Assembly: GCA_965213625.1 (NCBI GenBank) | Contig: CBDBZU010000004.1 | Span: 2,944,001 to 3,008,000, forward strand | From: a bacterium | Lineage (GTDB): Bacteria; UBA8248 | Reading direction: 5' to 3' | Length of the DNA stretch: 64,000 nucleotides | Shown here: positions 6,734 through 64,000 of the stretch, piece after piece | Position numbering within the stretch: the stretch's first letter is position 1 | Layout: each line of letters opens with the position of its first letter | Program-made: the position numbers and the translations under genes | Notes under the pieces: generated by a model | Database searches by the model: none | What the model was told of the DNA's origin: nothing | Seen by the model: only the letters and a program-made list of their open reading frames with translations

Positions 6734-7630
6734 TCAGGCGTCCATCGCGCACCGGAAGCCGATGTTGAAATTCTTGTACCAGGGCTCGAAGCCCTCTCTC
6801 GCCGAACACCTGAGACTGTCTTCTATGTAATCCCAGCCGCAGCCCCGGGCGACCTTGGCCGTCCAGGCATACCCCGCCCTGCGCGGCAGCCAGCCCTCCG
6901 TGTTCCCGAAGCGGATCTTGTAACTGTCTTCGTCTCGCAGCAGGATCTCGTAGCGCTCGCCGCGTTTTACTTCGCCCAGGCTCAGGTTTCCCCCTCCCGG
7001 AACGGCGAATACGGGCACCTTCGCCATCGCCACCTCGAAAGTAGGCTTCTCGAGTCCTTTCGGATTCTCCACCGGACCCGTCTGGTAGTAAAACCCGTCA
7101 AACCAGTCCGCCACCCACTCGAAGACGTTCCCGGCCATCTGCACGCAATCGTAAGGAGATGCGCTATCCCCGAAATCATTCACGTTGGCGGGGCAGTGAA
7201 TATCCGTTTCCGTGCTCGCGTAAACGGCTCGCTCGGGAGATGGTTCATCCTCCCCCCATGGATACTTGCGGCCATCCGTTCCGCGCGAGGCTTTCTCCCA
7301 CTCCGCCTCGGTCGGCAGGCGCTTGCCCACCCACTTGGCGTATGCGTTCGCCTCCTCCCAGCTGATGCTGACGATGGGCTGCTCCGGCCCCACGAAATCA
7401 TCTCTTGTAAATGAGGGAGGTGGAGGAAACGCCTCGGTCTCCTCCAGAAATGCGCGGTACTGCGCATTCATAACGCAGTATTTGTCGATCCAGAAAGCGT
7501 CGAGCGTGACTTCGCGCTGGGGACGCTCATCCGCGTTCCCGGTCTCGGAACCCATCTGGAAAGAACCAGCCGGCACACACACCATCGCGGCTTCGTCTTT
7601 CCCTCTTTTCGTTTCCCTCACATCGTTCAT
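6734..7630 (-). CDS. FGE-sulfatase (SUMF1/EgtB-like) fold protein with an internal SH3-like insertion
   Basis: FQMGS, RLPTEAEWEKA, YPWG, MAGNVFEW and IGFRC motifs, with about 60 extra residues between NPKG and KVARG. Confidence 0.85.
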   Translation of the reverse strand: MNDVRETKRGKDEAAMVCVPAGSFQMGSETGNADERPQREVTLDAFWIDKYCVMNAQYRAFLEETEAFPPPPSFTRDDFVGPEQPIVSISWEEANAYAKWVGKRLPTEAEWEKASRGTDGRKYPWGEDEPSPERAVYASTETDIHCPANVNDFGDSASPYDCVQMAGNVFEWVADWFDGFYYQTGPVENPKGLEKPTFEVAMAKVPVFAVPGGGNLSLGEVKRGERYEILLRDEDSYKIRFGNTEGWLPRRAGYAWTAKVARGCGWDYIEDSLRCSAREGFEPWYKNFNIGFRCAMDA

Positions 7631-8760: not shown

Positions 8761-9978
8761 TTATCCCCTCACGCCGATCCAGTCGACTTCGTTGTCGGCC
8801 GCATCGTTCTGACCCATGGAAATGACCTTGTCGGCCATCTGTTTGACGTCTTCGAGCAACACCTCACGGCCACCGAGGCCGCAAACGAATCCTTTCATGT
8901 GAGGCGCCTTGTCCGCCCCGTACATGGCGGCTTTTATTTCATTATACACGATACCGCCGTGATAGGGAGAACCAAACGAATAGTCGCGGTCGATGACGCC
9001 CACCGCCTTGAAGCGCGAGAGCGATTCGCGCAACTCTTCTGTCGGGAATGGGCGGAACCACTTGAGACGAACCATACCGACTTTCTTGCCTTCCTTACGC
9101 ATTTCGCGAATGGCGACTTTCACCGGCAGACTCAGTGTTCCTACGCCGCACAGCACGACGTCGGCATCCTCTGTCATATACTCATCGAGGAAGGGGTTGG
9201 TGTTTGTACCAAAAATTTTACTGAAATCGGCGTGGGCTTCCTTGAGCACGGTGTAGGAGTTTTTCGCCGCCTCGCTGCTTTGGCGTCTCACTTCCATGAG
9301 CCAGTCTTCGTTGGCTTGTGGCGCGATGGTGATGGGGTTGTCCGGATGAAGCAGCAGGTCTCCCCTGTCGTAGGGAGGCAGGAATGCGTTGACTTCATCC
9401 TGTCCGGGCAGCCGCACCGTCGCCTGGCTGTGCGTCAGGAATGCGCCGTCCATCGCGATGGCGCAAGGGAGATATACCCTCGGGTCTTCGGCGACGCGAT
9501 ACGCCAGAAGACCGAGTTCGATGACTTCCTGCGCCGTGTCCGGGAAGTTGATCATCCAGCCCAAGTCACGAACGAGCATGGCGTCGTTGTGCTCGGTGCC
9601 GAACGCGCCTGGGTCATCCAGAGCGCGGCAGCCCACCAGGGCCACCATCGGTAGCCTGAGGCCCGCCGTAACGGCGAGCGGCTCCATCGCATAGAGCCAG
9701 CCCACGCCGCTCGAGCCGGTGAACACGCGCGCGCCGCAGGCCGAGGCGTGTTTGACTATCTCGAACTGACCGTGTTCGCTTTCCGCCGGGATGTAGTCGG
9801 CGTCGAAATCGCCCTCGGCGATGAACTTGGAAACATACTGCATCACGGTGTCATACGGTCGTATGGGATAGGCCGTGATGACATCGACGTCGGCGAGACG
9901 GCAGATATGCGCCATGACCTCGCTTCCGGTGAGGAGATGAACCCCCGCACCTTGTTGTTGTTCGGTAGCTGTTGCCAT
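8761..9978 (-). CDS. 2-oxoacid:ferredoxin oxidoreductase alpha subunit (oxalate oxidoreductase-like)
   Basis: AYPIRP (not YPITP), ESEH, RALDDPG, RPFP and GLGGR motifs. Confidence 0.9.
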   Translation of the reverse strand: MATATEQQQGAGVHLLTGSEVMAHICRLADVDVITAYPIRPYDTVMQYVSKFIAEGDFDADYIPAESEHGQFEIVKHASACGARVFTGSSGVGWLYAMEPLAVTAGLRLPMVALVGCRALDDPGAFGTEHNDAMLVRDLGWMINFPDTAQEVIELGLLAYRVAEDPRVYLPCAIAMDGAFLTHSQATVRLPGQDEVNAFLPPYDRGDLLLHPDNPITIAPQANEDWLMEVRRQSSEAAKNSYTVLKEAHADFSKIFGTNTNPFLDEYMTEDADVVLCGVGTLSLPVKVAIREMRKEGKKVGMVRLKWFRPFPTEELRESLSRFKAVGVIDRDYSFGSPYHGGIVYNEIKAAMYGADKAPHMKGFVCGLGGREVLLEDVKQMADKVISMGQNDAADNEVDWIGVRG

Positions 9979-9991
9979 CAGTTCGCTCCTA

Positions 9992-11179
9992 TTAAAGCTC
10001 TTTGAGAGATTTGACCTGCGCCGTTTCAGGATTGTGGCCCATTTCGATGCCGATGCCGGAGAACGCCTGCCCGAGGCCGGTGATGGGGTGACGACCCTCT
10101 ATCTTGCCGGTGCTGATCTTCTCGTCCATGTACTTGTCGTAGTCGCCCTTATTCTCCTGCCACATCTGCCACTGGCTGTCGCGCTCATCGAAGACGACTT
10201 CGTTCACCATGGTGATGCAGTCCTTGACGGGACAGATGGCCTCGCACACGCCGCAGCCGCAGCAGGCTTCCATGTTTGCGTCGAAAAAGCCGTCCGGCGT
10301 AACGTCGAAACAGGTGTCCGGGCATGCAACCCAGCACAGCGTGCATTTCGTGCATTTCTCAAAAGACACGACGGGACGCATGGTGCGGGTTGACCATTTC
10401 TTGAAGTAGGGATTTCTCCCCGGCTCGTAGCCGTCCTCGCCGCCCCTGAAGCCCTCGTGGCCGCCCACGCCGTCGATGACGACGCCCTGGCGCATTTCGT
10501 GCCACTTGAGGAGTTCGAACGTGAAAGGAACTTCATCATTGCCCTGGCCCGGTTCGATTTCCACGGGACGCAGGTCTTCATATACCTCGCGCGCGGCTTC
10601 TACGTGCGTTTCAGAACCGAGGTTCTCGCGGATCGCCGATTCGAGAGACGCGATGGAGCACATTGTCGGCTCGGCCTTGAGGGCCGCCGCCAGACAGCGC
10701 GTGTCGGTGCCGTCGTCCTTGTACACCCAGAGACCTGCAAAGCTCGCCTCACCTGGGATGATAGCGAGTTTGTAGGGCGTGTCCCTGCGGTGGATGTGCT
10801 GGACGAGTTCGTCTTCTTTCTGATTGGACGTGACAATCAGCGTGCCGCCGGGCTTGGTGACGGCGTTGATAGGCTGAAGGCCGTACCACGCCCACGATTC
10901 CACGCCCTTGCAAAGCGTGTCGTCCACACAGATGGAGATGTCCACCTGTTTGGGCTCGTATTGCGCCGCCACGGTCTCGAGTTCTTCCTCGTTGTCCGCG
11001 ATGTAACCGAACTGCTTGGCCGGAATTCCGTTGCGCTCGGGCGAATCGCTGTAGCGCCCGAAGGAGATGCCCGGCTTGCCTTCTTTCACGGCCGCTAGAA
11101 TCAGCGTCCGCGAAATTTTTACGGCAAGGCTTTTCTGGAAAATCCCTCTGTAAATTACTTCAAACGAAATCACACTCAC
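9992..11179 (-). CDS. Fused gamma/delta subunit with 2x[4Fe-4S] ferredoxin domain
   Basis: An N-terminal gamma-like domain (FGRYSDSPERNG) plus CTKCTLCWVACP and CCGCGVCEAICP. Confidence 0.88.
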   Translation of the reverse strand: MSVISFEVIYRGIFQKSLAVKISRTLILAAVKEGKPGISFGRYSDSPERNGIPAKQFGYIADNEEELETVAAQYEPKQVDISICVDDTLCKGVESWAWYGLQPINAVTKPGGTLIVTSNQKEDELVQHIHRRDTPYKLAIIPGEASFAGLWVYKDDGTDTRCLAAALKAEPTMCSIASLESAIRENLGSETHVEAAREVYEDLRPVEIEPGQGNDEVPFTFELLKWHEMRQGVVIDGVGGHEGFRGGEDGYEPGRNPYFKKWSTRTMRPVVSFEKCTKCTLCWVACPDTCFDVTPDGFFDANMEACCGCGVCEAICPVKDCITMVNEVVFDERDSQWQMWQENKGDYDKYMDEKISTGKIEGRHPITGLGQAFSGIGIEMGHNPETAQVKSLKEL

Positions 11180-11294
11180 ATTCGATACCCCCCACTTTGG
11201 AGTTGAAGAAAATGAATCTTATCGTCTGGGGATTGAACCCCTCAAAATTGCCTGATACCTATCTGGATTTACGCTAACTTCAATCTCGCAAACA

Positions 11295-11993
11295 TTATTT
11301 CCGAGCGGGCGTCTGCTCGACCAGATGACTGATCATCCCTGCCGTCGCCCTGTTCCTGTCCTTCTCCGAAACGGCATTCAGAATCTTGTGGTGCGCTTCC
11401 CACGAACGCAGGCGCACACTTTCATCGCGCCGGAGTGAGCGCTCCCTTAACTCGCTCAGAGAATTCAGCAGGCTGCTCAGCAGATGGTGCAGAAATTGAT
11501 TCTTGGCGGCCTCTGCAAGGCTCAAATGAAACTCGGTGTCTTCCCTCAGGCCGAGACGCCCCCCTTCTATCTCATCATGCTGACACCGGAGTGTTTCTTC
11601 CAGCTTTTCCAATTCCGCCTCCGTCACTCGCTCGGCGGCCAGAGCGGCGATTTGAGGCTCAAGAACCATGCGCGCCTCAAAAAGGTGGTGAATGCCGCTT
11701 TCCGCATCGGAGGAGACTTTTTCGGAAATCACATGAATCATGGATACCGGGTTCGCCGTAACGAACGTGCCCTCCCCCTGCTTCGTTTCCACCAGACGGG
11801 CGGATTCCAGCGACCGTGTAGCCTCTCGAACGGAATTGCGTCCCACACCGAATTGCTCGCAAAGCTCACGCTCCGAGGGCAGCTTCTCGCCCGGTTTGAT
11901 GACGCCTTCGAGGATCAGGGACGTCAGTTGATCGACGATGGCCTCGTAAACGCGCGTTTTCTTCACCGCCTGCAGTCTGTCGCTGATGACCAC
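11295..11993 (-). CDS. FadR/GntR family transcriptional regulator
   Basis: LPSERELCEQFGVGRNSVREA winged HTH; FCD domain with DTEFH and EAHHKI. Confidence 0.93.
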   Translation of the reverse strand: MVISDRLQAVKKTRVYEAIVDQLTSLILEGVIKPGEKLPSERELCEQFGVGRNSVREATRSLESARLVETKQGEGTFVTANPVSMIHVISEKVSSDAESGIHHLFEARMVLEPQIAALAAERVTEAELEKLEETLRCQHDEIEGGRLGLREDTEFHLSLAEAAKNQFLHHLLSSLLNSLSELRERSLRRDESVRLRSWEAHHKILNAVSEKDRNRATAGMISHLVEQTPARK

Positions 11994-12473: not shown

Positions 12474-13685
12474 TTGAAGAAATGGCAACTCCTTGCCCTG
12501 CTCACAACCGGCCACGCCTGTGAACACTGGTTCCAGGGCGTTCTGGGACCCGTCATCCCCTTTCTAGCGGCAGATCTTGGCCTTACGTTAACCCAGGTGG
12601 GACTTCTCTTCACGGGCAGAGCCGTGATGAGCGCTTTCAGCAGCGTGGGCACCGGCTACGTCATCGACGCCTACGGCGGCGGGAAATGGCTTCTCGTCGG
12701 TTGCATGGCTACGGTAGGGCTTTTCTACGGAGGGGCGAGCCTCGCTACGGGGTTCATCACACTGGCGCCCATCATCTGGCTGAGCGGCCTGGCAACGCAC
12801 ACCTGGCACCCGCCCTCTATGGGCTTGCTGGGCATGCGCTTCGATAACCGAAAGGGTTTTGCCCTGGGCGTGCACGGCACGGGCGCGAACCTGGGACAGA
12901 CGCTGGCGCCCATCATCGCGGGCTATCTGCTCCTCATCATGAGCTGGCGGGGCGTCTTGTTGGCGAACACGATTCCGCTGTTCGCCACGGCGCTTCTCTT
13001 ATTGGTTTTTCTCGAACCTTTCCAGATCAGCGGCAAACAAAAGCCCGGCTCCTCCATCACCCCGCGAAATTTCGTGGACGCGCTCATCAAGAACCCCGGC
13101 ATGGCGGGGGCATGCGTCTTCTCCGGCGTAAGGACGCTGGCGCACAACGTCGTCTCCATTTTCCTGCCCATTCTCCTGGTGAGAAAATACGGTGTGGGCC
13201 CAAGCACACTGGGCCTTGCGCTAGGCGTGTACTCGGCGGCCTCCATATTTCCTGAAACCATCGTCGGCTATCTCTCCGACAAGATTTCCCGAAAATTGAT
13301 CCTCTTCATCGGAATCGCCGCCGGTGGTTTCGCAATGCTCCTAATTCCCTACACTGGCACGGGAATTTTCCTCTACGCCTGCGTCGCGTCGGTCGGCGTT
13401 TTTCTCATTTCCATGCGCTCGGCGATTTTCGCTTACGGCTTCGAGATCAGCCCGCCCAGGTTGGCGGGAAGCGTCGTCGGCGTTATTTTCACTGCGAATC
13501 AGATTTTTGTTGGCCTGGGATTGTTTTTTCTGGGTATACTGGCGGATGCATACGGCCTGGAAGTCGTTTTCGGAGCAATCGGCGTCGCCTGTCTGGGCAG
13601 CCTGATCGCCTTCTCATGGTTGCCCGCAACGGAAGAGAATTTGGCTCCTCACCAGGCGGCGAATCCGGGGGATCCTATGCGCTAG
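12474..13685 (+). CDS. MFS transporter (FSR-like)
   Basis: About 12 TM segments; WHPP..G and GVHGTGANLG motifs. The start is uncertain (TTG 12474 chosen; the ORF is open from 12294). Confidence 0.85.
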   Translation: MKKWQLLALLTTGHACEHWFQGVLGPVIPFLAADLGLTLTQVGLLFTGRAVMSAFSSVGTGYVIDAYGGGKWLLVGCMATVGLFYGGASLATGFITLAPIIWLSGLATHTWHPPSMGLLGMRFDNRKGFALGVHGTGANLGQTLAPIIAGYLLLIMSWRGVLLANTIPLFATALLLLVFLEPFQISGKQKPGSSITPRNFVDALIKNPGMAGACVFSGVRTLAHNVVSIFLPILLVRKYGVGPSTLGLALGVYSAASIFPETIVGYLSDKISRKLILFIGIAAGGFAMLLIPYTGTGIFLYACVASVGVFLISMRSAIFAYGFEISPPRLAGSVVGVIFTANQIFVGLGLFFLGILADAYGLEVVFGAIGVACLGSLIAFSWLPATEENLAPHQAANPGDPMR

Positions 13686-28214: not shown

Positions 28215-28287
28215 TCTCCACCCTCAAACCATAGAATTCTGAGGATTATAACGGAATTTGGATGGATAAACCGCCTCAAATAGTTCC

Positions 28288-28314
28288 GTCATTCCGGCGC
28301 ATGCCGGAATCCAG
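28288..28314. repeat. REP/dRS3-like palindrome
   Basis: GTCATTCCGGC-GCAT-GCCGGAATCCAG, a perfect 8-bp stem. Confidence 0.6.
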
Positions 28315-28507
28315 AACCGGTGTGAGCCGACATCGTTTTCTTGGGCCGGTGGCTGGAAAATCGAGGCTAAGGAAGATATTGTCGATCATAGCAGGTACGG
28401 CAATTTTGTTGCTCAAGGTAGTATGCGCGGATTATCGTTTAATTTGAGTCGTTAGTGGCCAACCAAAATTTGCCCGAAAAGTAACGAAGCATAACTCGGA
28501 GACTTTA

Positions 28508-30001
28508 ATGGCCAAGAAAACTATCTTCGCGATTAACACAGACGTGCCAGGGGAAATCACTTCCGAAGTAAATTATCGTTCCAACCAAACATTGTTGGAC
28601 GCTGATATTATTTTGTTCACTCCTACCCTAGAAATCGGTTGGTCAAGTGAGACTTACCAAGGTAAACCGCTTCTTTCGGAGCAGAAGTCATTTACAGCAT
28701 TAGAACAAACACGCCATTGGGAAAAAGAGATCTCCACAGCAGTTAATGCAGGAAAATTGGTTGTCGTTTATTTGGCGAAACCGGAAGACTGTTTTCGGTA
28801 TACCGGTGAAAAACAAACTTCAGGCACTGGCCGGAATCAGAAAGTCACCAATATTGTTACAGAAATAAATTCTTACGACGCACTACCAGCAATAAATTCT
28901 TATTCGTCGGTGACAGGTGCGAAGATAAAAATTGCTAAGACAGGAGCAATTATTTCACCGTATTGGGATCAGTTTGCGACTTACTCATCTTATCGCACTG
29001 AGGTAAAGGGGGAATTTTCCGAAGTCTTACTAGAATCTGAGGTAGGAATTAGGGTTGTGGGCGCTTTAATTAGGGCTACAGGAGGAGGATCTCTCTTATT
29101 TCTGCCACCTGTTAATTTTAATGTAGCTGAGTTTCTTGAGGAGAATGACGAAGGCTACGAAGTCTGGAACGAGGCTGGCTTGCAGGCAGGAAAAAGATTC
29201 GTCGGAGCCATAATTTCGCTTGCAGAAGCGATATCTGTCAATAGAACTATGACCCCACCGCCTGATTGGGCATCTGGCAACCAATATCGTTTGCCGAATG
29301 AAAGACGTCTTGAAGCCGAGGTTACCCAAATTTCCGAAAAAATTGTGCATCTCGATAAGACTAAAAACACTCTCCAACAGACTCTATTGGCTGCAGGAAG
29401 CCCTCGCAATCTTCTGTTTGAAAAAGGCACACCTCTGGAAGATGCCATTCTGGAGAGCTTGAAACTAATGGGCTTCAAAGCGGGTGGTTTTGATGACGGA
29501 GAGTCCGAGTTCGACGCCATTTTTTCTTCTCCTGAGGGAAGATTCATCGGTGAAGCCGAAGGTCGCGACAATAAGGCTATTAGCATAGATAAATTTAGCC
29601 AATTAGAACGCAACTTGCATGAAGATTTTAGCCTCGATGAAATCGACGAAATGGCAAAAGGGGTATTGTTCGGCAATGGCTATCGCTTAGAACCACCAGA
29701 AGAACGCGTTGAAACTTTCACTGCAAAATGTCTAAAAGCGACGAAAAGAACCGGGATTGCTTTGGTTCGCACGCCAGACATGTTCGAGCCAACAAGATAT
29801 CTTAAAGAACATCCTGAAGATCAAGATTACGCGACGGCCTGCCGAAGAGCGATAGCCGATACAGAGGGGGCGATTGTCGAATTTCCTACGCCTCCGATCG
29901 AGGAAACAGCAAAAATTGTAGAGAAAACCGCTAATATCATAAACGACACAAGCGACGAAATATTTGAGGGTGCTCAGGCCAAGACAGACGGAAAAGCCTA
30001 A
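28508..30001 (+). CDS. AT-rich hypothetical protein with coiled coil and C-terminal restriction-endonuclease-like domain
   Basis: 497-aa ORF with a GGAG RBS, visibly AT-richer than its flanks. LE..I...L..MGF, EFDAIF..IGEAEG and SQL follow an Mrr/PD-(D/E)xK-like layout. Confidence 0.7.
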   Translation: MAKKTIFAINTDVPGEITSEVNYRSNQTLLDADIILFTPTLEIGWSSETYQGKPLLSEQKSFTALEQTRHWEKEISTAVNAGKLVVVYLAKPEDCFRYTGEKQTSGTGRNQKVTNIVTEINSYDALPAINSYSSVTGAKIKIAKTGAIISPYWDQFATYSSYRTEVKGEFSEVLLESEVGIRVVGALIRATGGGSLLFLPPVNFNVAEFLEENDEGYEVWNEAGLQAGKRFVGAIISLAEAISVNRTMTPPPDWASGNQYRLPNERRLEAEVTQISEKIVHLDKTKNTLQQTLLAAGSPRNLLFEKGTPLEDAILESLKLMGFKAGGFDDGESEFDAIFSSPEGRFIGEAEGRDNKAISIDKFSQLERNLHEDFSLDEIDEMAKGVLFGNGYRLEPPEERVETFTAKCLKATKRTGIALVRTPDMFEPTRYLKEHPEDQDYATACRRAIADTEGAIVEFPTPPIEETAKIVEKTANIINDTSDEIFEGAQAKTDGKA

Positions 30002-30076
30002 TCAATTCTATTTCTTATTTCATATGCAACATATCAGCACAGCTTAGATTACAAGAATTTCCTTGCCTTCGCCCCA

Positions 30077-30922
30077 TCAAGTCGAATGAGGGGCTTGGGC
30101 GGCGCATCTGAAGCCGATGTAGCCATGCCCCGTCGCCTGCCTGCCGGGCATCACGACTTCCCGGCTCGTGGCCGTCATGCCGTCCGGCGCACTCGCCGAA
30201 TTGCCGCCCCGCACCACGCGCGCATCCACCGCGCTCAAGTTTTCGCGTCCGTCTTTGGGCTTGTAGGGGTAGTTCATCGCGAGCGAGGCCGTCCATTCCC
30301 ATACCTGCCCCGCCATGTCGTTCACCCCGTATGGGCTGGCGCCTTTAGGATAACGACCCACGACCGCCGTTTGGCCCCTGAAATCCCCTAAAAGCAGGTA
30401 TTCTCCCGACGGCTTCTGGTTCCCCCACGGGTAGAGGCGGCCATCGCCTCCGCGCGCCGCCTTTTCCCATTGCGCCTCGGTGGGCAGCCGCTTCCTTTTC
30501 CAGCGGCAATAGGCCAGCGCCCCGCCCCAGGCCATCTCGCTCGCCGGGAATTTGTCGAAACCCTTCTCGACGACCCAGGAATCTCCCATCGGGATAATTT
30601 TGGCGTCGGGGTCGTCAGTGTCGAGGTACATCTCCCCCTGCGGCCCGGTCGGGCCTTTCTCCTGAATGAAGGGCAGGTAATCCGCCCAGGTCACCAGGTT
30701 TTGGTCGATGTAATAGGCGGGCAGGAACACGCGATGCGCGGGTTTTTCCTCATCGGGGCCGTCGTTTCTCCCCATCGTGAAGGGACCTGCGGGAATGAGA
30801 ATCATCCCGGCGTATTTGCCCTTTCCCATCTTCGGTGCGGAAGCGGCACCGGCCGTTTCTGCAAAAACCGCCGCTACGAAGACGAGAAGGAAAATCCATA
30901 TGCCGACCGATTTTTTTGTCAT
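30077..30922 (-). CDS. Secreted FGE-sulfatase-fold protein, copy 2
   Basis: About 95% amino-acid identity to 27369..28214. Confidence 0.9.
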   Translation of the reverse strand: MTKKSVGIWIFLLVFVAAVFAETAGAASAPKMGKGKYAGMILIPAGPFTMGRNDGPDEEKPAHRVFLPAYYIDQNLVTWADYLPFIQEKGPTGPQGEMYLDTDDPDAKIIPMGDSWVVEKGFDKFPASEMAWGGALAYCRWKRKRLPTEAQWEKAARGGDGRLYPWGNQKPSGEYLLLGDFRGQTAVVGRYPKGASPYGVNDMAGQVWEWTASLAMNYPYKPKDGRENLSAVDARVVRGGNSASAPDGMTATSREVVMPGRQATGHGYIGFRCAAQAPHST

Positions 30923-33776: not shown

Positions 33777-34124
33777 CTACACTCCCGACGACTCGGGCTC
33801 ACGAGACGCGGTTTTCAGGTCCTGCTGAGTGAAAAGGAGTTTGCAGACCTTGTCCATGTGCGCCCTGAGCGGCGGATAGGTTGTTAGTTCGTAACTTTTC
33901 ACGTCCACACTGAACGGCAGATTACTCTCATAAAATAGAGTCCAGAGCCTATCGATCTGCTTTTCATTGATGGTGCCGCGCAATACCAGGTCGACGTCCG
34001 AATTTGGACGATATTTACCCGTAGCGCGTGAACCGAACAACTCGACCGAGACGACCTCCTCTGCATAGAGCGAGAGAATCTGTTTCAAAACCATGAGCTG
34101 GCGGTCCGAGAGTCCGTGGTTCAT
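33777..34124 (-). CDS. Minimal nucleotidyltransferase (MNT antitoxin)
   Basis: GS-X10-DVD motif (FGSRATGKYRPNSDVDL); overlaps the HEPN stop. Confidence 0.9.
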   Translation of the reverse strand: MNHGLSDRQLMVLKQILSLYAEEVVSVELFGSRATGKYRPNSDVDLVLRGTINEKQIDRLWTLFYESNLPFSVDVKSYELTTYPPLRAHMDKVCKLLFTQQDLKTASREPESSGV

Positions 34125-34546
34125 GGCTGCTCCCCGGTTTTTTCGAGGAATTGCGTGTGCAATGCGTCAAACGCGCGCAGGTAGTTTTTCCTGATCTCTT
34201 CGATGACGGCCTCGAATCTTTTCGGATCATAGTTGTGCGACATCTTATTGCGTGCATCCAGAGCGTCCATCCATGTCTGTCCATCTTCCAGTAAATTCGC
34301 CTCGAAGGCCTTGCGGATGACGGTTCTGGGAGTCACATGCTCAAAGACGAAGTTCTCGCTCTCCAGATAGTCCTTCATGAGGTTCCAGGCAAGTTCAGTC
34401 GTGTACTCGAATCGCTGAATAATCCCTTCTTTTTCAAGCTGACTCGGCTCTCTTTGGTCCATCATTTCGATGGCCTCACGCAGTAAGGAAAAAGCGCGCT
34501 TGTAGTTGTCGAAGCGATATTGCCAGCGTGGGGTGTCGTCGTTCAC
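34121..34546 (-). CDS. HEPN toxin (HI0074 family)
   Basis: GIIQRFEYTTELAW and RNKMSHNY (R-X4-H-X-Y) motifs. Confidence 0.9.
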   Translation of the reverse strand: MNDDTPRWQYRFDNYKRAFSLLREAIEMMDQREPSQLEKEGIIQRFEYTTELAWNLMKDYLESENFVFEHVTPRTVIRKAFEANLLEDGQTWMDALDARNKMSHNYDPKRFEAVIEEIRKNYLRAFDALHTQFLEKTGEQP

Positions 34547-35415: not shown

Positions 35416-35490
35416 TGGAGCGGGAAACGGGATTTGAACCCGCGACCCCAACGTTGGCAACGTTGTGCTCTACCACTGAGCTATTCCCGC
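35416..35490 (-). tRNA. tRNA-Gly (GCC)
   Basis: The reverse complement GCGGGAATAGCTCAGTGGTAGAGCACAACGTTGCCAACGTTGGGGTCGCGGGTTCAAATCCCGTTTCCCGCTCCA folds as a cloverleaf with a GCC anticodon and encoded CCA. Confidence 0.97.
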
Positions 35491-35568: not shown

Positions 35569-36654
35569 TCAACCCACCTCCAGTTTCTCCGCTAGCCAGT
35601 CCGCCGCGAGGGGACGCCACAAGAAAGGAATGTTGTTGCACACGTGGACGCCTTCCTCGTACACCACGAGTTCGCACGCATCGCCCGCCTCCGCCGCTAT
35701 CTTGCGGGCTTGCTCTACGGGGCACAGCCTGTCGCGCGCGCCGTGAATGATCAGCAAGGGTCGATCCAGCCCGCTCAGGCAACCGCGCAGGGAGATCTCC
35801 TGCGACTTGAGCGCGCCTTGCTCTTCATTTTCCGTCTGAAAGGAGACGCAAACCCCCTGGCGCGTCAGCATGGGCAAACCCTCCCAAATCTCCACCATGT
35901 CGTATGGTCCGCATACGCCGACCCCTGCCTTGAGGCGGGGTTCCAGGGCGAGGCTACGCGGCGCGTAGTAGCCGCCCAGGCTCACCCCCAGGGCGCCGAT
36001 GCGGGATGAGTCCAGGCGCTCATCTTCCACCAGATGATCCATGACGACCGAGACCACACCCTCGAAATCGGGACGCATCTGCATGTCGGCGTTTTCCCCT
36101 TGCGCCGGGCCGTCGAAGGCGAAAGTCGCCATCCCCCGGCTGTGGAGAACTTCTTCGAGCGTATAAAATTCCTCTTTTGTGGAATCGAGGCCCGCGACCA
36201 GGACAACGCACGGTGCTCCGCCCTCCCCTTTCGCCCCCTCGGGGACCCGCAGAATACCCGGCAAACCCCTCCCTCCCGGCCAGGGGATTTCCACCCGCTC
36301 GGCAGGCGGGTCCAGGTGCGGAGCGGCGCGCATGTAGGCAGCCACCTTTCTCTTTTGCGCCTCCGCCTTGAGTTCCAGGTCCTCATGGTAGACGAACTGG
36401 GCGAAATGATAAGCGAGAGAAGCCCGCACGTAGGCTTCGGCGGCGCTCAACATCCTGCCCGCCTGTTCCATCTCGCGGGCTTCGCGTTCTCGAACCGCCG
36501 CGCGCTCCATCCAGAGACGGCACCACGCATGCCAGGAACTTACCTTGGGTATGACTTCCGAGGCGTCGAAATAGGAGATGCCATTCGCCAGAAGGCGGAC
36601 GTACCAGTGCGAGAGGGCTTCTTGCGTGAGGGCATCTGCGGAAGACTCACTCAA
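35569..36654 (-). CDS. Alpha/beta hydrolase (FrsA/2,6-dihydroxypseudooxynicotine hydrolase-like)
   Basis: GLDSTKEE, FDGPAQGE, GVSLGGYY and GVHVCNN motifs. Confidence 0.88.
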   Translation of the reverse strand: MSESSADALTQEALSHWYVRLLANGISYFDASEVIPKVSSWHAWCRLWMERAAVREREAREMEQAGRMLSAAEAYVRASLAYHFAQFVYHEDLELKAEAQKRKVAAYMRAAPHLDPPAERVEIPWPGGRGLPGILRVPEGAKGEGGAPCVVLVAGLDSTKEEFYTLEEVLHSRGMATFAFDGPAQGENADMQMRPDFEGVVSVVMDHLVEDERLDSSRIGALGVSLGGYYAPRSLALEPRLKAGVGVCGPYDMVEIWEGLPMLTRQGVCVSFQTENEEQGALKSQEISLRGCLSGLDRPLLIIHGARDRLCPVEQARKIAAEAGDACELVVYEEGVHVCNNIPFLWRPLAADWLAEKLEVG

Positions 36655-37415
36655 TTTACTTCTCCTAAAGCGGCCTTGCGGGCATGAATGCGAACCGACA
36701 CCACCGGTCGAAACGGAGCGTGGCCGGATATATCAATATCACAAAACCCGGCGCCCGCCAGCAATGATTCCCATTCGGTCTGCTCGCAAACCCCGCCGAG
36801 CGAGGCGTTCCACGCCTGGGGGTCCTGGGCGATCTCATCGGGCAAAGCACCCTCGCGTATCAGTTCACGGACGACGAGACGCCCGCCCGGCTTCAATATC
36901 CTGTGCGCCTCGGCGAGCGCCTTTTCCTTGTCCACCGTGAGGTTGAACGAGGCGTTGGCCAGCACGACGTCGGCGACACCATCAGCGAGGGGGACCTTCT
37001 CCATGTCCCCGGCCAGCAGATTCAGTTGCGCGCCACCAATGGCTCCCCTGAACGCCTCGCGCGCCCGATGAAGCATTTGAATCGCAAAATCCACGGCGTA
37101 CAGACTGGCGCCGACATCGAGTCTTTCGCTCAAGAGGCGCGCGTCCAATCCTGCGCCGCATCCCAATTCGACGGCCGTACGCACGCCTCTCAGATCGACC
37201 CCATCGAGCAGGTATCCGCAACCGCAATAAGAACCCGAAACCCGTTCGGGCAGACCGTCGATGAAGCGGGCGGGATAACCCGCACCCCGCGCCCTGTCCG
37301 TCCCGCCCTCCGGGAACGCATCCGCCTCGGCCAGATGGGCGTAGCGCTTTCTGACGAAGGATTTTACCTGCTCCTCCCACGCTTTCGGCTTCGCGCCATC
37401 TACGGTTACGGGCAT
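36651..37415 (-). CDS. SAM-dependent methyltransferase (ArsM-like)
   Basis: SYCGCG, ELGCGAGLD, NASFNL..DK and RILKPGG motifs. The start was reassigned to ATG 37415. Confidence 0.8.
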   Translation of the reverse strand: MPVTVDGAKPKAWEEQVKSFVRKRYAHLAEADAFPEGGTDRARGAGYPARFIDGLPERVSGSYCGCGYLLDGVDLRGVRTAVELGCGAGLDARLLSERLDVGASLYAVDFAIQMLHRAREAFRGAIGGAQLNLLAGDMEKVPLADGVADVVLANASFNLTVDKEKALAEAHRILKPGGRLVVRELIREGALPDEIAQDPQAWNASLGGVCEQTEWESLLAGAGFCDIDISGHAPFRPVVSVRIHARKAALGEVN

Positions 37416-37422
37416 GGTCGGC

Positions 37423-38175
37423 CTAATGCGGCATGTGGGCCGGGTTCCAGAACTCCCCGGTCCGCACCATTTTGGCGATTCGTTCGCCGTGAGGCATCCA
37501 GCCGTTCTCGTTTTTCTTCGCCTGCGTTTCGCAGTCGTACGCCACGCGCTTGGTCTCAACGCGCCACTCGCCATCGCCCAGATATTCCACGACCGAATAG
37601 GCGGGGCGGTAGTCGCCGTCCCAGTTCATTCCGACTGCGGCGGTGCAGACCAGGGTCTGTCCGTCCACTTCGCGGACGTAGGGGCCGTGCACGTGGCCGA
37701 AGGCCATGATCTCCGCATCCGTTCCCTTGATCTTCTCCTTCACCTCCTCGTCCGTGAACCTCAGGGGAATCGCGTCTTCGATGTCGTCCGGTGTAGCGTG
37801 GAAGATGAAGAAATCATGCCCCTTCTCGGGCGTGATCGTCATCGACCACATGAGGCCGTCGAGATAGTCGATCTGCTCGGCGGAGAGGCGCTCGCGCGTC
37901 TTCTTCACCATCTCGTAGAGCCATACATGGTGTTCGTTCTTGGGCGGGTCCGTCTCGTCTTTTCGCTTCGACACCCACCAGTCCAGGTTTCCGGCGAGGA
38001 CGTCCACGTCCTTGCGCCCCATGAAGCGCTCCACCACCTCGGTGGGCTCGGGGCCGAGCATCACCAGATCGCCGATGACGATCTCACGGTCCGCGTTTTC
38101 TTTGGCCACTGCTTCCTGCACGGCATCCAGAGGCGCAAGCTGCGCGTGGATGTCGGAATACAAAATAATTTTCAC
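37423..38175 (-). CDS. Metallophosphoesterase (calcineurin-like)
   Basis: SDIH, GDLV, GNLD, FH and GHVH motifs. Confidence 0.9.
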   Translation of the reverse strand: MKIILYSDIHAQLAPLDAVQEAVAKENADREIVIGDLVMLGPEPTEVVERFMGRKDVDVLAGNLDWWVSKRKDETDPPKNEHHVWLYEMVKKTRERLSAEQIDYLDGLMWSMTITPEKGHDFFIFHATPDDIEDAIPLRFTDEEVKEKIKGTDAEIMAFGHVHGPYVREVDGQTLVCTAAVGMNWDGDYRPAYSVVEYLGDGEWRVETKRVAYDCETQAKKNENGWMPHGERIAKMVRTGEFWNPAHMPH

Positions 38176-38198
38176 GTTGCTATTCCCTTTCCGTTATC

Positions 38199-38238
38199 AA
38201 AAGAACAGGGCCGCCGCACCCGAAGAGCGCGGCGGCCC
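38199..38238 (-). terminator. Hairpin/terminator after the ABC substrate-binding gene
   Basis: GGGCCGCCGC..GCGGCGGCCC stem with a TGTTCTTTT tail on the minus strand. Confidence 0.7.
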
Positions 38239-38259
38239 GTAATCATACTTGTTGAAAAT

Positions 38260-39273
38260 CTAAATTTTGCCTGCCTTGGCCAAGGCCGCTTTCGTCACGC
38301 TGGTGTCGACGATGTCCTCATAAGAGGGAACCTTGCCCTTGATCTTCCCGAGGCGCTTCATGTAGTCCGCCGTGAAGGCAACCGAGGCTTTGGGGATGCC
38401 GTTGTTCACACCCCAGATCTTCTCCGCCACGAAAATGTCATACGTCTTCGACATGATCTCGGGGTTTTTCTTGTAAACGGGGCGCACCCATTTGTTCGCC
38501 GATTTAAGATACCCCGCCTTGTCCTTGTAGATGGATCGGTTGGACTGCATCATCGCCATGGCGAAGCGCACGTAGGCATCCTTGTTCGAGTTGATCTTCG
38601 AAGACGGTGCGATGAACGCCCCGTAGAAGAAGTTCGGCATCGCCTTCCACAGGTCCATCAGCTTGTTGAAGTTGGGCTTTCTCTTCTTGACGACGAGAAC
38701 CTGCTCGACGTGAATCACCACGGCGTCGGCCTTGCCCTTGAGCAGGAACGGAACGCGCGCCGGCGGCGGGGTCTTGATGTATTTGACATCCTTGTCCGTC
38801 AGGCCTGCGGTCGACAGTACGGCGAGTGCGCCCAGGTGGCTGTATCCGCCGCGCCCCTCGATACCGATGGTCTTGCCCTTGAGGTCGGACGGCTTTTTCA
38901 CCTGGTCGTTCCCGGCCATCTGCGCTTCGTTCAGGTAAGCCATGGAGTGGAAGAACTTCATGCCGCTACCCTTGGTGATGCCCACCATCGCTATCGGGGC
39001 CGGCACCCAGGCGGCGTCCAGACCGCTCTTCTTGCTCGTTATCGCCCGGTGCGTGGCGACACCGCCCCGGAAGAATTTGATCTCCACGTCCAGGCCGTGT
39101 TTCTTGAAGATATCGTTGTCCAGCGCGTAAAACACCGGCAGGTGCACCATGACCGGCGGCCGCACGGGCATGCCGAGCACGATCTTGTCTGCGGCAACGG
39201 ACTGCGCCGGCGCGCTCCACATCGTTGCGGCGAGAACGAACGCCGCGACCAAAACCATCCACATCTTTTTCAT
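38260..39273 (-). CDS. NitT/TauT-type ABC substrate-binding protein
   Basis: Signal peptide MKKMWMVLV; FKKHGLDVE, DLKGKTIG and GKADA motifs. Confidence 0.88.
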   Translation of the reverse strand: MKKMWMVLVAAFVLAATMWSAPAQSVAADKIVLGMPVRPPVMVHLPVFYALDNDIFKKHGLDVEIKFFRGGVATHRAITSKKSGLDAAWVPAPIAMVGITKGSGMKFFHSMAYLNEAQMAGNDQVKKPSDLKGKTIGIEGRGGYSHLGALAVLSTAGLTDKDVKYIKTPPPARVPFLLKGKADAVVIHVEQVLVVKKRKPNFNKLMDLWKAMPNFFYGAFIAPSSKINSNKDAYVRFAMAMMQSNRSIYKDKAGYLKSANKWVRPVYKKNPEIMSKTYDIFVAEKIWGVNNGIPKASVAFTADYMKRLGKIKGKVPSYEDIVDTSVTKAALAKAGKI

Positions 39274-39328
39274 TTCAAACTCCTTAAAAAGAATAGAAAA
39301 TTCATGCCTCGACAAGACGCCCACTCAA

Positions 39329-40153
39329 TCAGGACTCTTGCCGAACCCTCCAGGAAGAGAACTTCGTTTCACAGATGTTCACCACTTTCGTTAAAGCTAT
39401 ACCGACTGCCATCAACAAGACAACAGGCGCCAGGCCTTTGTCCAGTTCCAAGTCCCCGATGTAGTCCTGACTCAACGCGCCGAGCCCCGAGATGCTCATC
39501 AGAAACTCCGCGACGACCATGCCCACCAGCGCGCGCCCGCACGCGAGCCCCAGCCCCGCGACGAGATAAGGGACTACGCTCGGGAAAATCAGGTCCCGCC
39601 ATCGCTGGCTCTCCGTGGAGCAGAACGAGCGCGTCACTTCCAAGAGCGAGAGGTCCACGTTCCGCACCCCGTGATAGACGTTCACGATGATAGGCATGAT
39701 GGCGAAGAATACGACGATGGTCGTCTTGCCCACGAAATCCACGCCCAGCACCATGGCTATCGGGAACGCCAGCGCGACCACCGGCGTGGCGTAGAGCGCG
39801 AACACGTAGGTGTCCACGGCGTATTCGAATATCTGGAAGCGCCCCATGAGAATCCCTAAAACGATGCCCATGGGAATCGCGATGAGCAGTCCCGCCACCA
39901 GGATTTGCGAACTCTCATAGGCGGCGGCCGTCATCTGGCCGCTGGCGATCAGGTCCCAGAACGCGACGGATATGGCGCTCGGGTAGCTGAAGGTGACCGG
40001 ATCGATGTTTCCGGTCAGCCCCATCAACTCCCACCCGCCGATGACGACCACAAGCGATATCAAGCGCACGTATACGGCGGGGTCCTTGATGCGCTCCCAG
40101 GATGCTTTTTCTGCCGTCGATACACCTGCTGCCGTCGGGGCGTCGGTAGCCAA
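39329..40153 (-). CDS. NitT/TauT ABC permease
   Basis: Six TM segments, an EAA-like loop and VVAEF..ISGLG. Confidence 0.9.
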   Translation of the reverse strand: MATDAPTAAGVSTAEKASWERIKDPAVYVRLISLVVVIGGWELMGLTGNIDPVTFSYPSAISVAFWDLIASGQMTAAAYESSQILVAGLLIAIPMGIVLGILMGRFQIFEYAVDTYVFALYATPVVALAFPIAMVLGVDFVGKTTIVVFFAIMPIIVNVYHGVRNVDLSLLEVTRSFCSTESQRWRDLIFPSVVPYLVAGLGLACGRALVGMVVAEFLMSISGLGALSQDYIGDLELDKGLAPVVLLMAVGIALTKVVNICETKFSSWRVRQES

Positions 40154-62473: not shown

Positions 62474-64000
62474 ATGATACACATAGAACTCAAGCAACCA
62501 TACCTTTCAATAAAGAACCTCAACAGCGTCGAATTACCCGATTTTACACTTTTGATCGGCCGAAATGGTGTTGGGAAGACTCAATTACTCGAAGCAATAG
62601 CTGAGGGCCATATTTCTGTCTCGGGCATCTCAAATTCAAGAACTGAAAAATACGATATCGATTCTTTTCGGCCAAGTGATTCTGGGCAAGCAAATTGGGA
62701 GAGTTCTAGTTTTGCTGAAACAGCGGTGGAGAAATATTTCAAAGGTGAATCCGGTTTGGCTGAAACAAGGGTGGAGATATATCTCAAAGGTGAATCCGGT
62801 TTGGCTGCAGCAACAATTTTTCGGAATATTTATCGGAAAACAACTGAGGATTTTGAGCTAGATGATGGCACCGAATATCGCCTCCAATTCGAAGAAGAAG
62901 CAAGGGATACAATTGCCGAAATGTTATCCTCTAGCCAACCAATGCGCACATTGGCTGAATCAACAGATGCGATAAAATATTACTTGGAACAAATCGGAAA
63001 ACTCATCTTTTCATGGCCTCTAGAAGATATAGATGCGGATCTCGCAAATCAGATGTGCCATCTTATCCATTCAGCAATTATATCGAATAGAAAGTTACCG
63101 CATGAAATAACTCGAGGCGATATTCTACGAGCTGCAAATTCTGCAGTAAAAACAATCGGTAATTCGCTGAGTCAAGTTTTCACGAGATATAAAGTCGAAC
63201 AGTTCTCATGGGCACACAAGGAAGCGGAAGCGGGTCCCGAGAATTTTGAACATCTGATGTCGAGTTATCTAGAGACAAATCCCCCGCCATGGATCACGTT
63301 GCACGAAAACCTGGAAAAGATGCGCGAGGCACCGGGATATCCGGATCTTTTTAATTTTGAATTTTCTGACCCGAGAGACGACAAAATCACTTTTGCGAAT
63401 CATCGAGAATACTCATTTGAAACAAAGTTTACCAACAGAGCTACCGGTGAAAGCTATCCAGTCGAAAGCCTTTCATCAGGAGAGAAAATACTGATGTCAT
63501 TATGTTTGGCCTCATTCAATCAAAAGTTGGGTCGCCAACCGCCCAGCCTCATATTACTGGACGAACTCGACTCCGTACTACACCCTTCCATGATTTCTGC
63601 TCTTATAGCTAGCATCAAGACTCTGTTTATCGACAAAGGAACGAAAGTCATCATGGCTACGCATTCTGTAACGACCGCAGCCCTCTTCGATGAAGATAAA
63701 ATTTACCGCATGAGAAGGAACAACAACAAAATTACTATTCGACCTATTACAATATCCGAGGCGGTTTCAGAACTATCAGAGGGTCTGGCGACGATAGATA
63801 CTGGATTGAGGATTGCGGGAGCTGATGCTAAACCAATTACTATACTGACTGAAGGCAAGAACTTGCTACACATGAAAAAGTGGGCAAGCTTATATTATCC
63901 TGAAGAAGTAGATGTATTTGATGCTTTGCCAGAAAAAACAGGCAAGGATCAGCTAAAAACCTACGGTGATCTTCTCTCGAAAGTAAACACGAATTCTCAC
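62474..64000 (+). CDS. ABC-type ATPase with probable C-terminal TOPRIM domain (OLD/AAA_21-like), 3' partial
   Basis: Not in the ORF track because it has no stop in the window; translated by hand from ATG 62474. It shows GRNGVGKT, LSSGE, LILLDELDSVLHP and ATHS, then ILTEGK. AT-rich. Confidence 0.85.
   Translation, partial: MIHIELKQPYLSIKNLNSVELPDFTLLIGRNGVGKTQLLEAIAEGHISVSGISNSRTEKYDIDSFRPSDSGQANWESSSFAETAVEKYFKGESGLAETRVEIYLKGESGLAAATIFRNIYRKTTEDFELDDGTEYRLQFEEEARDTIAEMLSSSQPMRTLAESTDAIKYYLEQIGKLIFSWPLEDIDADLANQMCHLIHSAIISNRKLPHEITRGDILRAANSAVKTIGNSLSQVFTRYKVEQFSWAHKEAEAGPENFEHLMSSYLETNPPPWITLHENLEKMREAPGYPDLFNFEFSDPRDDKITFANHREYSFETKFTNRATGESYPVESLSSGEKILMSLCLASFNQKLGRQPPSLILLDELDSVLHPSMISALIASIKTLFIDKGTKVIMATHSVTTAALFDEDKIYRMRRNNNKITIRPITISEAVSELSEGLATIDTGLRIAGADAKPITILTEGKNLLHMKKWASLYYPEEVDVFDALPEKTGKDQLKTYGDLLSKVNTNSH
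62711..62807 (+). repeat. In-frame 45-bp tandem repeat inside the ATPase
   Basis: Encodes FAETAVEKYFKGESG / LAETRVEIYLKGESG / LA. Confidence 0.9.

Follow-up and report, generated by a model that had tools for sequence, protein, structure and literature searches.

The locus considered here raises the question of what a solitary, nuclease-like gene of foreign base composition might be doing among metabolic genes. The gene lies at positions 28508..30001 (stop codon included) on the forward strand of a 64-kilobase (kb) stretch of DNA, which we call the window, taken from a bacterium of the GTDB lineage UBA8248 (assembly GCA_965213625.1, contig CBDBZU010000004.1, positions 2,944,001 to 3,008,000). 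Its open reading frame (ORF) starts with ATG and has 497 codons, and we refer to the protein of 497 amino acids as P0001. An initial annotation had described an AT-rich ORF of this size and proposed that it is an anti-phage system composed of a sensor, a coiled coil and a nuclease, the latter being modification-dependent or acting by abortive infection. The description of the ORF is accurate: its G+C content (GC) is 0.444, as compared with 0.571 for the whole window, and the strings quoted from the protein are all present, namely NERRLEAEVTQISEKIVHLDKTKNTLQQTL (residues 264-293), EFDAIF (334-339), IGEAEG (347-352) and SQL (364-366).

In the structure predicted for P0001, three modules can be distinguished: an amidotransferase-like N-terminal domain, a helix with heptad repeats, and a PD-(D/E)xK domain that resembles the nuclease FokI. 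We tentatively favor an immune function for this protein, and weigh this possibility below against four alternatives.

Nuclease domain and active site

The C-terminal part of P0001 had been seen as restriction-endonuclease-like, and structure prediction agrees. The AlphaFold2 model of the full-length protein, which like our heptad and net-charge analyses is based on an alignment of 40 sequences, has a mean predicted local distance difference test (pLDDT) score of 85.8 and a predicted template modeling (pTM) score of only 0.52; the single domains are therefore confidently modeled, and their mutual arrangement is uncertain. When the nuclease domain was folded alone (residues 293-467), the pLDDT was 94.8 and the pTM 0.90. 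A Foldseek search with this isolated domain gave FokI as the top solved match (2fok, E-values of 5e-4 and 5.7e-4; 1fok, 1.3e-3), with TMq values of 0.56-0.58 and a probability of 1.00. FokI chains are also the only PDB matches at E <= 1e-3, both in the search with the full-length model (two matches) and in the search with the domain (two matches). The matches that rank after FokI, i.e., AF1548, HindIII, NucS/EndoMS, Hjc and VC1899, belong to the same nuclease superfamily, and among the predicted viral structures of BFVD the named top matches are phage models labeled "restriction endonuclease" and Mrr-like models.

The domain occupies residues 306-465 (29423..29902), in which DSSP assigns a helix at 307-320, three strands at 324-329, 334-341 and 344-352, a second helix at 361-374 and a further strand at 384-390. 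As modeled, this order is that of the canonical PD-(D/E)xK core, alpha-beta-beta-beta-alpha-beta. We regard it as very probable that the C-terminal domain has a nuclease fold. It is followed by a variable tail (residues 466-497, 29903..29998), with pLDDT below 50 and a majority-residue fraction of 0.16.

The predicted active site is almost invariant. Residue counts out of 261 refer here and below to a set of 270 relatives, from which nine were dropped for length. E311 in helix alpha1 (codon 29438..29440), a predicted metal-site residue, is Glu in 257 of the 261 sequences, and D336 at the start of strand beta2 (29513..29515), the predicted catalytic Asp, is Asp in all of them. Strand beta3 carries E349-A350-E351 (29552..29560), where E349 is kept in 261/261 and E351 in 259/261. 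Other residues kept in the domain are Q365 and N390 (both 261/261) and, near the site, K362 (260/261), K/R353 (259/261) and K407 (257/261). The beta3 motif has Glu in place of the Lys of (D/E)xK. We read EAE, which the initial annotation had seen at the place of (D/E)xK and which is located on beta3 and hardly varies, as a probable E-x-E variant of this motif. Excerpts from one publication state that BamHI (Glu77, Asp94, Glu111, Glu113) and OkrAI use an E...D...E-x-E site, which is an active variant, and that the sole other enzyme known at that time to have Glu at the last position, BamHI isoschizomers aside, was BtsCI (PMC3025578). As far as these excerpts go, the E-x-E site of P0001 is therefore unusual, but has an active precedent. 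We think it probable that the nuclease domain is catalytically active.

N-terminal domain and connecting helix

Preceding the nuclease, an alpha/beta domain of about 250 amino acids had been noted earlier and left unnamed. It is present in the model as a beta-rich alpha/beta domain (residues 1-250, 28508..29257; pLDDT mostly above 90), and its fold can now be suggested. Its Foldseek matches in the PDB are 2a9v, 3fij, GatD, a PabA-type domain, HisH, Pdx2, the ThuA-like 1t0b, GH42 domains and IFT52-N, with E-values of 1.5e-3 to 2e-2, probabilities mostly of 0.85-0.99 and high root-mean-square deviations (rmsd). The matched entries with the fold of class-I glutamine amidotransferases (GATase1) include 2a9v, 3fij, 6gs2, 8hx9, 4gud, 2nv0 and 1t0b. 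Judging from the model, the fold of the N-terminal domain is of this amidotransferase-like (flavodoxin-like) type, and in view of the high rmsd the similarity is distant.

The aligned sequences argue that the domain is non-catalytic as an amidotransferase. No Cys within it is invariant, and there is no conserved nucleophile Cys such as that of the Cys-His-Glu triad. C95 is the sole Cys found in at least half of the sequences within residues 1-250 (27/40), but is present in only 74/261. Well-kept residues in this domain are D31 (250/261), D33 (249/261), H70 (234/261), W71 (259/261), E74 (239/261), Y123 (244/261), W153 (249/261) and P200 (261/261), and K83, Y152 and Y162 are conserved as well. 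Of these, D31, D33, H70, W71, E74, Y123, Y152 and W153 make up a polar and aromatic surface that is strongly kept. A beta-hairpin tip with the sequence SGTGR is also conserved, but missing in 4 of the 40 sequences.

Between the two domains, DSSP assigns a helix of 34 residues (263-296, 29294..29395), which corresponds to the coiled coil of the initial annotation and is a putative dimerization stalk. Its hydrophobic positions, 268, 272, 275, 279, 282, 289, 293 and 296, have an unbroken spacing of 3-4 residues in 40/40 sequences, and core position 286 is a conserved polar Lys. The conserved heptad is a putative coiled-coil signature, for which we infer a partner helix. In our estimation, the chances that P0001 forms a homodimer are about even.

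Family size and conservation

Proteins related to P0001 come from bacterial and archaeal sources and have one constant architecture. A word-indexed protein search, in which 8000 candidates were scored, gave 930 proteins at E <= 1e-3, and 119 of the 120 homologues listed are 441-508 amino acids long. In an exhaustive HMMER search of representatives of clusters at 50% identity, 1391 representatives matched at E <= 1e-3, 900 at E <= 1e-10 and 472 at E <= 1e-30, and most of the 150 that were listed align end to end with P0001. No longer, fused forms were found among longer proteins, which is weak evidence on this point. A group of 106 hits is short, and many of these come from contigs with a length of 1-2 kb, while long contigs carry fragmentary copies as well; the short hits look like fragments or pseudogenes. 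Mean column identity across the 40 aligned sequences is 57%, and the majority-residue fraction of the N-terminal domain is 0.62.

The family has no name in the resources that we searched. Among the matches listed, source names, where given, are "hypothetical protein" or similar, and there is no precomputed Pfam domain. P0001 has no usable match to Pfam (E <= 0.01), NCBIfam or PHROGs, the sole line being a PHROG at E 0.45. For the 40 family members, Pfam gives no nuclease or amidotransferase model at E <= 1, only scattered, coiled-coil-type noise, in at most 2 of the 40 for any one family. Sequence and profile searches of the PDB (phmmer, hmmsearch) gave no nuclease match at E <= 10, only coiled-coil or chance hits with E >= 0.14, and neither Pfam nor the PDB chains provided a sequence or profile link to the FokI family. 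In a protein atlas, the whole of P0001 matches unnamed clusters, while its N-terminal domain scores at most 0.76 against named clusters (DUF2194, MJECL34), which is below the level of a lead.

A protein scan of genome contigs with P0001 identified one locus, L001, on the chromosome of a metagenome-assembled genome (MAG), in which the gene is located at 10001-11494. The two orthologues are 86% identical, and the ratio of nonsynonymous to synonymous substitution (dN/dS, NG86) is 0.22 for the whole gene, 0.24 for the N-terminal domain and lowest, 0.13, for the nuclease domain. Given this ratio and the homologue counts, P0001 is a real gene under selection and not a chance ORF. Its start codon is supported by the alignment, since most of the 40 homologues start at the same M-x-K-x-x-I/F position, and a Shine-Dalgarno sequence, GGAGA (28498..28502, forward strand), lies 5 bases 5' of the ATG and is kept in L001.

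Indications of horizontal acquisition

The composition of the gene differs from that of its host DNA in each of three hosts. In addition to the difference in the window given above, gene and host GC are 0.45 and 0.57 in L001, and 0.358 and 0.512 at a plasmid locus. Third-position GC is 0.396 for P0001 versus 0.64-0.79 for eight neighboring genes. In the window, the gene is carried by a low-GC insert of about 1.8 kb (28270..30073), as delimited by GC and by the ends of flank homology, with direct copies of an FGE-sulfatase gene on its two sides. The homology of the duplicated flanks stops near 28270 and restarts near 30073, and 1-kb GC values are 0.456 and 0.458 in the insert versus 0.59-0.65 on both sides.

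Homologues that are 41.5% identical to P0001 are carried by 7 of 72,556 plasmid records, all of them Enterobacter IncF plasmids, of which 6 are typed as conjugative. The plasmid homologue keeps all motifs of P0001. It is divergent from a tyrosine recombinase gene, and transposases of the insertion sequence (IS) families IS3 and IS21 and a GNAT/DUF1778 toxin-antitoxin pair are near. No DNA-level match to the Enterobacter gene was found in 20,395 E. coli records, where distant relatives are beyond the reach of a DNA-level search. In addition, pairwise identities of 55-63% are seen among proteins labeled as coming from Bathyarchaeia, Phycisphaerae, Woeseia and Burkholderia. This suggests horizontal spread, although errors in MAG binning may have given some of them a wrong source label.

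In Enterobacter plasmid pMB9539_1 (locus L003), the homologue is convergent with a gene for a 364-amino-acid protein (9635-10729, reverse strand; GC 0.33). This protein matches nothing in Pfam or NCBIfam, a 311-amino-acid form of it has no PADLOC match, and other plasmids in the set have truncated versions. Because the two genes have equally low GC, they may have arrived together. The 364-amino-acid protein has no counterpart beside the window gene, and no conserved partner gene is common to the window, L001 and plasmid contexts. The P0001 gene stands alone in all three contexts and, judging by composition and distribution, was acquired horizontally.

Proposed function and alternatives

We suggest that P0001 has an immune function, as a single-protein, restriction-like or abortive nuclease directed against invading DNA, although we put this at somewhat below an even chance. 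The suggestion would draw on the foreign composition in three hosts, the solitary and mobile-looking placement, the similarity across phyla, the intact and selected nuclease site, and the precedent of other sensor-nucleases. In the mechanism that we envisage, the N-terminal domain would bind a conserved ligand or DNA feature and thereby gate the nuclease, the helix would pair two chains such that two FokI-like domains cut both strands, and the acidic tetrad E311/D336/E349/E351 would bind Mg2+ and cleave DNA as in BamHI. Gating of this kind would explain how a lone nuclease is tolerated with neither a methyltransferase nor an antitoxin.

A more ambitious form of this hypothesis is that P0001 is the first example of a widespread, unnamed family of single-protein immune nucleases in bacteria and archaea, of at least 1391 clusters, in which a dead amidotransferase-fold sensor would license a coiled-coil-paired nuclease of the FokI/BamHI type with an E-x-E site to cut DNA. 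Such a sensor would respond to a conserved feature of the invader, e.g., a nucleotide signal or a nucleobase that is modified or decorated with sugar. We consider this doubtful enough to be offered as a working idea. Our literature searches found no description of this architecture, nor of an amidotransferase fold as the sensor of such a nuclease; the supplementary tables of defense-discovery studies were outside these searches and might list the family.

It is important to set out the observations that weigh against an immune function, or against the structural model on which it builds. With the low pTM, the relative arrangement of the sensor and the nuclease is uncertain. The Foldseek E-values for the nuclease domain are modest (5e-4), with no sequence profile that ties the family to any nuclease family, and the domain is net acidic in 40/40 sequences (-3 to -17). 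At E <= 1, P0001 has 0 matches among the 5027 models of PADLOC-DB v2.0.0, and the Enterobacter plasmid homologue has 0 at E <= 1e-3. The conservation of the family is unusually high for a sensor engaged in an arms race. Two related genomes keep the gene at a single chromosomal site, as would be expected of any useful gene and not of an immune one in particular. Its neighbors are metabolic both in the window and in L001, and the only defense-like genes near it are an MNT/HEPN pair 3.8 kb off and an ATPase gene 32 kb off. Of the earlier proposal of an anti-phage system, then, the stand-alone architecture with a restriction-endonuclease fold stands, whereas neither PADLOC-DB nor the neighborhood lends support to a role in defense.

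An alternative is that P0001 is a nuclease of a selfish or mobile element, either a free-standing homing-type enzyme or one that serves the exclusion or stability of an island or plasmid. This would be compatible with a single-gene, low-GC insert in a window that has no integrase, with plasmid copies beside a tyrosine recombinase and IS elements, and with the 55-63% similarity of proteins labeled as bacterial and archaeal. A comparison of the window with L001 gives a synonymous divergence (dS) of 0.33 for the gene and, despite the synteny of the two loci, roughly twice this value for six flanking genes (0.57-0.74); a subsequent exchange of the insert among lineages would likewise fit. However, the low dS may merely mirror the different base composition of the gene, i.e., it may be an artifact of NG86. 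A homing enzyme would also depend on a particular target site, and this is hard to square with a protein that is strongly conserved over its whole length in widely differing hosts. Moreover, free-standing homing nucleases are common in phages, and 0 of 50,697 phage records match P0001. We consider this alternative unlikely.

Equally improbable, in our judgment, is that P0001 is an orphan restriction endonuclease of type II or type IIS character, whose methyltransferase is elsewhere or lost and whose N-terminal domain binds DNA sequence-specifically. FokI is the best structural match and HindIII is another, the E-x-E site is that described in excerpts for BamHI and OkrAI (PMC3025578), and the two-module layout of recognition plus cleavage resembles type IIS. 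On the other hand, no DNA methyltransferase is adjacent in any context seen, and the N-terminal fold is amidotransferase-like, which is not a known DNA-recognition fold, with a net charge of -7 in P0001. An identity of about 50% between phyla, as in the P0001 family, is rare among classical restriction enzymes.

We give still less credence to a housekeeping nuclease of DNA repair or recombination that would be structure-specific, like NucS/EndoMS or Hjc, and have a regulatory N-terminal domain. The structural matches include NucS/EndoMS (2vld, 5gke) and Hjc (2wiw), purifying selection is strong, family conservation is high, and the same locus is retained in two genomes. A housekeeping role is, however, difficult to reconcile with foreign base composition in three hosts, with the small number of plasmid copies, all of them in Enterobacter, and the lack of DNA-level matches in E. 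coli records, with patchy source labels and with fragmentary copies on long contigs; nor are there repair genes near P0001. Finally, it is about as improbable that the N-terminal domain is the main active part, working on a non-DNA substrate with the nuclease fold as a mere binding or oligomerization module, since the many conserved polar and aromatic residues of that domain (e.g., D31, D33, H70, W71 and E74) and its structural neighbors among enzymes and domains of sugar enzymes are outweighed by the better-kept acidic tetrad of the nuclease (257-261/261), the lower dN/dS of the nuclease domain and the lack of conservation at the amidotransferase nucleophile position.

If the immune or restriction-like function is correct, P0001 would represent a common and compact single-gene system missed by PADLOC (2023) and by current Pfam and NCBIfam, and the amidotransferase fold would have a new job. 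The nuclease domain would also be a second natural FokI-like cleavage module, with a rare E-x-E site, and could interest enzyme engineers. The homologue on Enterobacter IncF plasmids, with the same motifs, is a cultured source that makes the question directly testable. Even if it is not defensive, the family is a large and well-conserved group of nucleases that has no name, and both a family model and a name would be warranted.

Genomic surroundings

The neighbors of P0001 in the window encode a GNAT acetyltransferase, the two FGE-sulfatase copies, an alpha/beta hydrolase and a luciferase-like oxidoreductase. As the initial annotation had stated, no methyltransferase is adjacent to the gene, and the same holds for the annotated plasmid loci; the nearest ORF with a methyltransferase domain (36651-37574) is 6.6 kb off and matches models of the Methyltransf_11/25/ubiE type. 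A candidate ORF of 758 codons (37414-39690, forward strand), the first 160 bases of which overlap this methyltransferase-domain ORF on the opposite strand, has no match in Pfam or PADLOC.

Both FGE-sulfatase copies that flank the insert are on the reverse strand. Copy 1, upstream of P0001 (27369..28214; PF03781, E 9e-45), is absent from L001, and copy 2, downstream (30077..30922; PF03781, E 3e-46), has an orthologue there. The two are direct repeats with 92% nucleotide and 95% amino acid identity and a dS of 0.26, and their homology spans about 55 bases of the 5' leader. Both are about 84% identical at the nucleotide level to the L001 gene (11570-12421, reverse strand), and this similar identity is explained either by duplication in the lineage of the window or by homogenization of the copies. 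A third, more distant paralogue is located at 6734-7630.

In L001, the order of genes is GNAT, the P0001 orthologue and one FGE-sulfatase gene, and the flanks match those of the window by ORF sizes; six flanking genes are 78-95% identical at the amino acid level. The Pfam scan of L001 covered two ORFs downstream of the FGE gene. From these comparisons, it fits that the insert was already present in the common ancestor of the window and L001.

Upstream of P0001, within the insert, is a perfect palindrome of 18 bases, TTCCGGCGCATGCCGGAA (28292..28309, forward strand), which has a counterpart in L001 at about 9786-9803 and in both loci is embedded in some 30 conserved bases. The window contains a single match to it, and 5 of 100 shuffled sequences contain one as well. 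The palindrome might serve as an operator or terminate the gene upstream, or it might be what is left of an insertion site. An Rfam search of the region upstream of P0001 gave no match, and scans of this region for promoters and terminators were at the level of chance. An ORF of 61 codons in this region (28262-28447) was considered as a partner gene and rejected, as its L001 counterpart is common only over the stretch encoded by the palindrome and then diverges.

The pair of genes 3.8 kb downstream of P0001 encodes a nucleotidyltransferase (NTase; Polbeta/NTP_transf_2) and an NTase_sub_bind protein (33777-34124 and 34121-34546, both on the reverse strand) and looks like an MNT/HEPN-type toxin-antitoxin module. 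Its NTase weakly matches the PADLOC candidate PDC-S09, and a tRNA-Gly gene (35416-35490, reverse strand) is about 0.9 kb away. In L001, where one half of such a pair was scanned, the distance is shorter, with a Polbeta nucleotidyltransferase ORF (13245-13592) about 1.8 kb from the P0001 orthologue. At the far end of the window, a second low-GC stretch (0.43-0.45) contains an ORF of more than 508 codons (62474-64000, forward strand) that runs past the window end. It has AAA_15/AAA_21/SMC_N ATPase domains and matches the PADLOC models MADS mad3, ATPase-Toprim, AriA, PtuA, AbiLi and Old (best E-value 4.8e-24), and is probably part of a defense system cut by the window end.

Comparison with known systems

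The closest known structure is FokI, which is the best solved match over almost the whole 175-residue domain and which, like P0001, has its PD-(D/E)xK nuclease C-terminal to a separate N-terminal module. The dimeric state in which FokI cleaves DNA suits the heptad helix of P0001. The two differ in that P0001 has no match at the sequence level to a PDB chain or a Pfam nuclease family, in the last catalytic residue, which is Lys in FokI and Glu in P0001, and in the N-terminal module, which in FokI consists of helix-turn-helix recognition domains. P0001 also has no methyltransferase partner beside it. BamHI, a one-domain type IIP enzyme with a methyltransferase partner, is absent from the Foldseek matches listed for P0001. 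The likeness in this case is in the active site, where Glu in alpha1, Asp in beta2 and Glu-x-Glu in beta3 are common to P0001 and, in the excerpts cited above, to BamHI and OkrAI; Glu77, Asp94, Glu111 and Glu113 of BamHI correspond to E311, D336, E349 and E351 (PMC3025578).

In organization, P0001 resembles two kinds of stand-alone defense protein. Like Shedu (SduA), it combines, in a lone protein, an N-terminal part that has no name with a PD-(D/E)xK nuclease at the C terminus. In Shedu, the N-terminal sensing part is variable or unnamed and the nuclease is inactive until triggered, whereas the N-terminal domain of P0001 is constant across the family, and P0001 matches neither DUF4263 of Pfam nor SduA of PADLOC. 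The type IV enzymes MspJI and AspBHI are also stand-alone, with no methyltransferase and with a C-terminal PD-(D/E)xK domain, and are weak structural matches (4oc8, E 0.083; 4f0p, E 0.11). However, these matches are far weaker than those to FokI, and the SRA-like base-flipping domain that MspJI and AspBHI use has no match in the N-terminal domain of P0001.

For the N-terminal domain itself, the nearest parallels are non-catalytic GATase-like domains, i.e., the ThuA-like 1t0b, the GH42 beta-galactosidase domains and IFT52-N (5fmr), which are Foldseek neighbors alongside the true amidotransferases 2a9v, 4gud and 2nv0. These similarities are distant and have no equivalent at the sequence level, and the matched entries have no nuclease fusion. 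Overall, we regard P0001 as a putative stand-alone sensor-nuclease in which a non-catalytic amidotransferase fold is joined to a FokI-like E-x-E nuclease.

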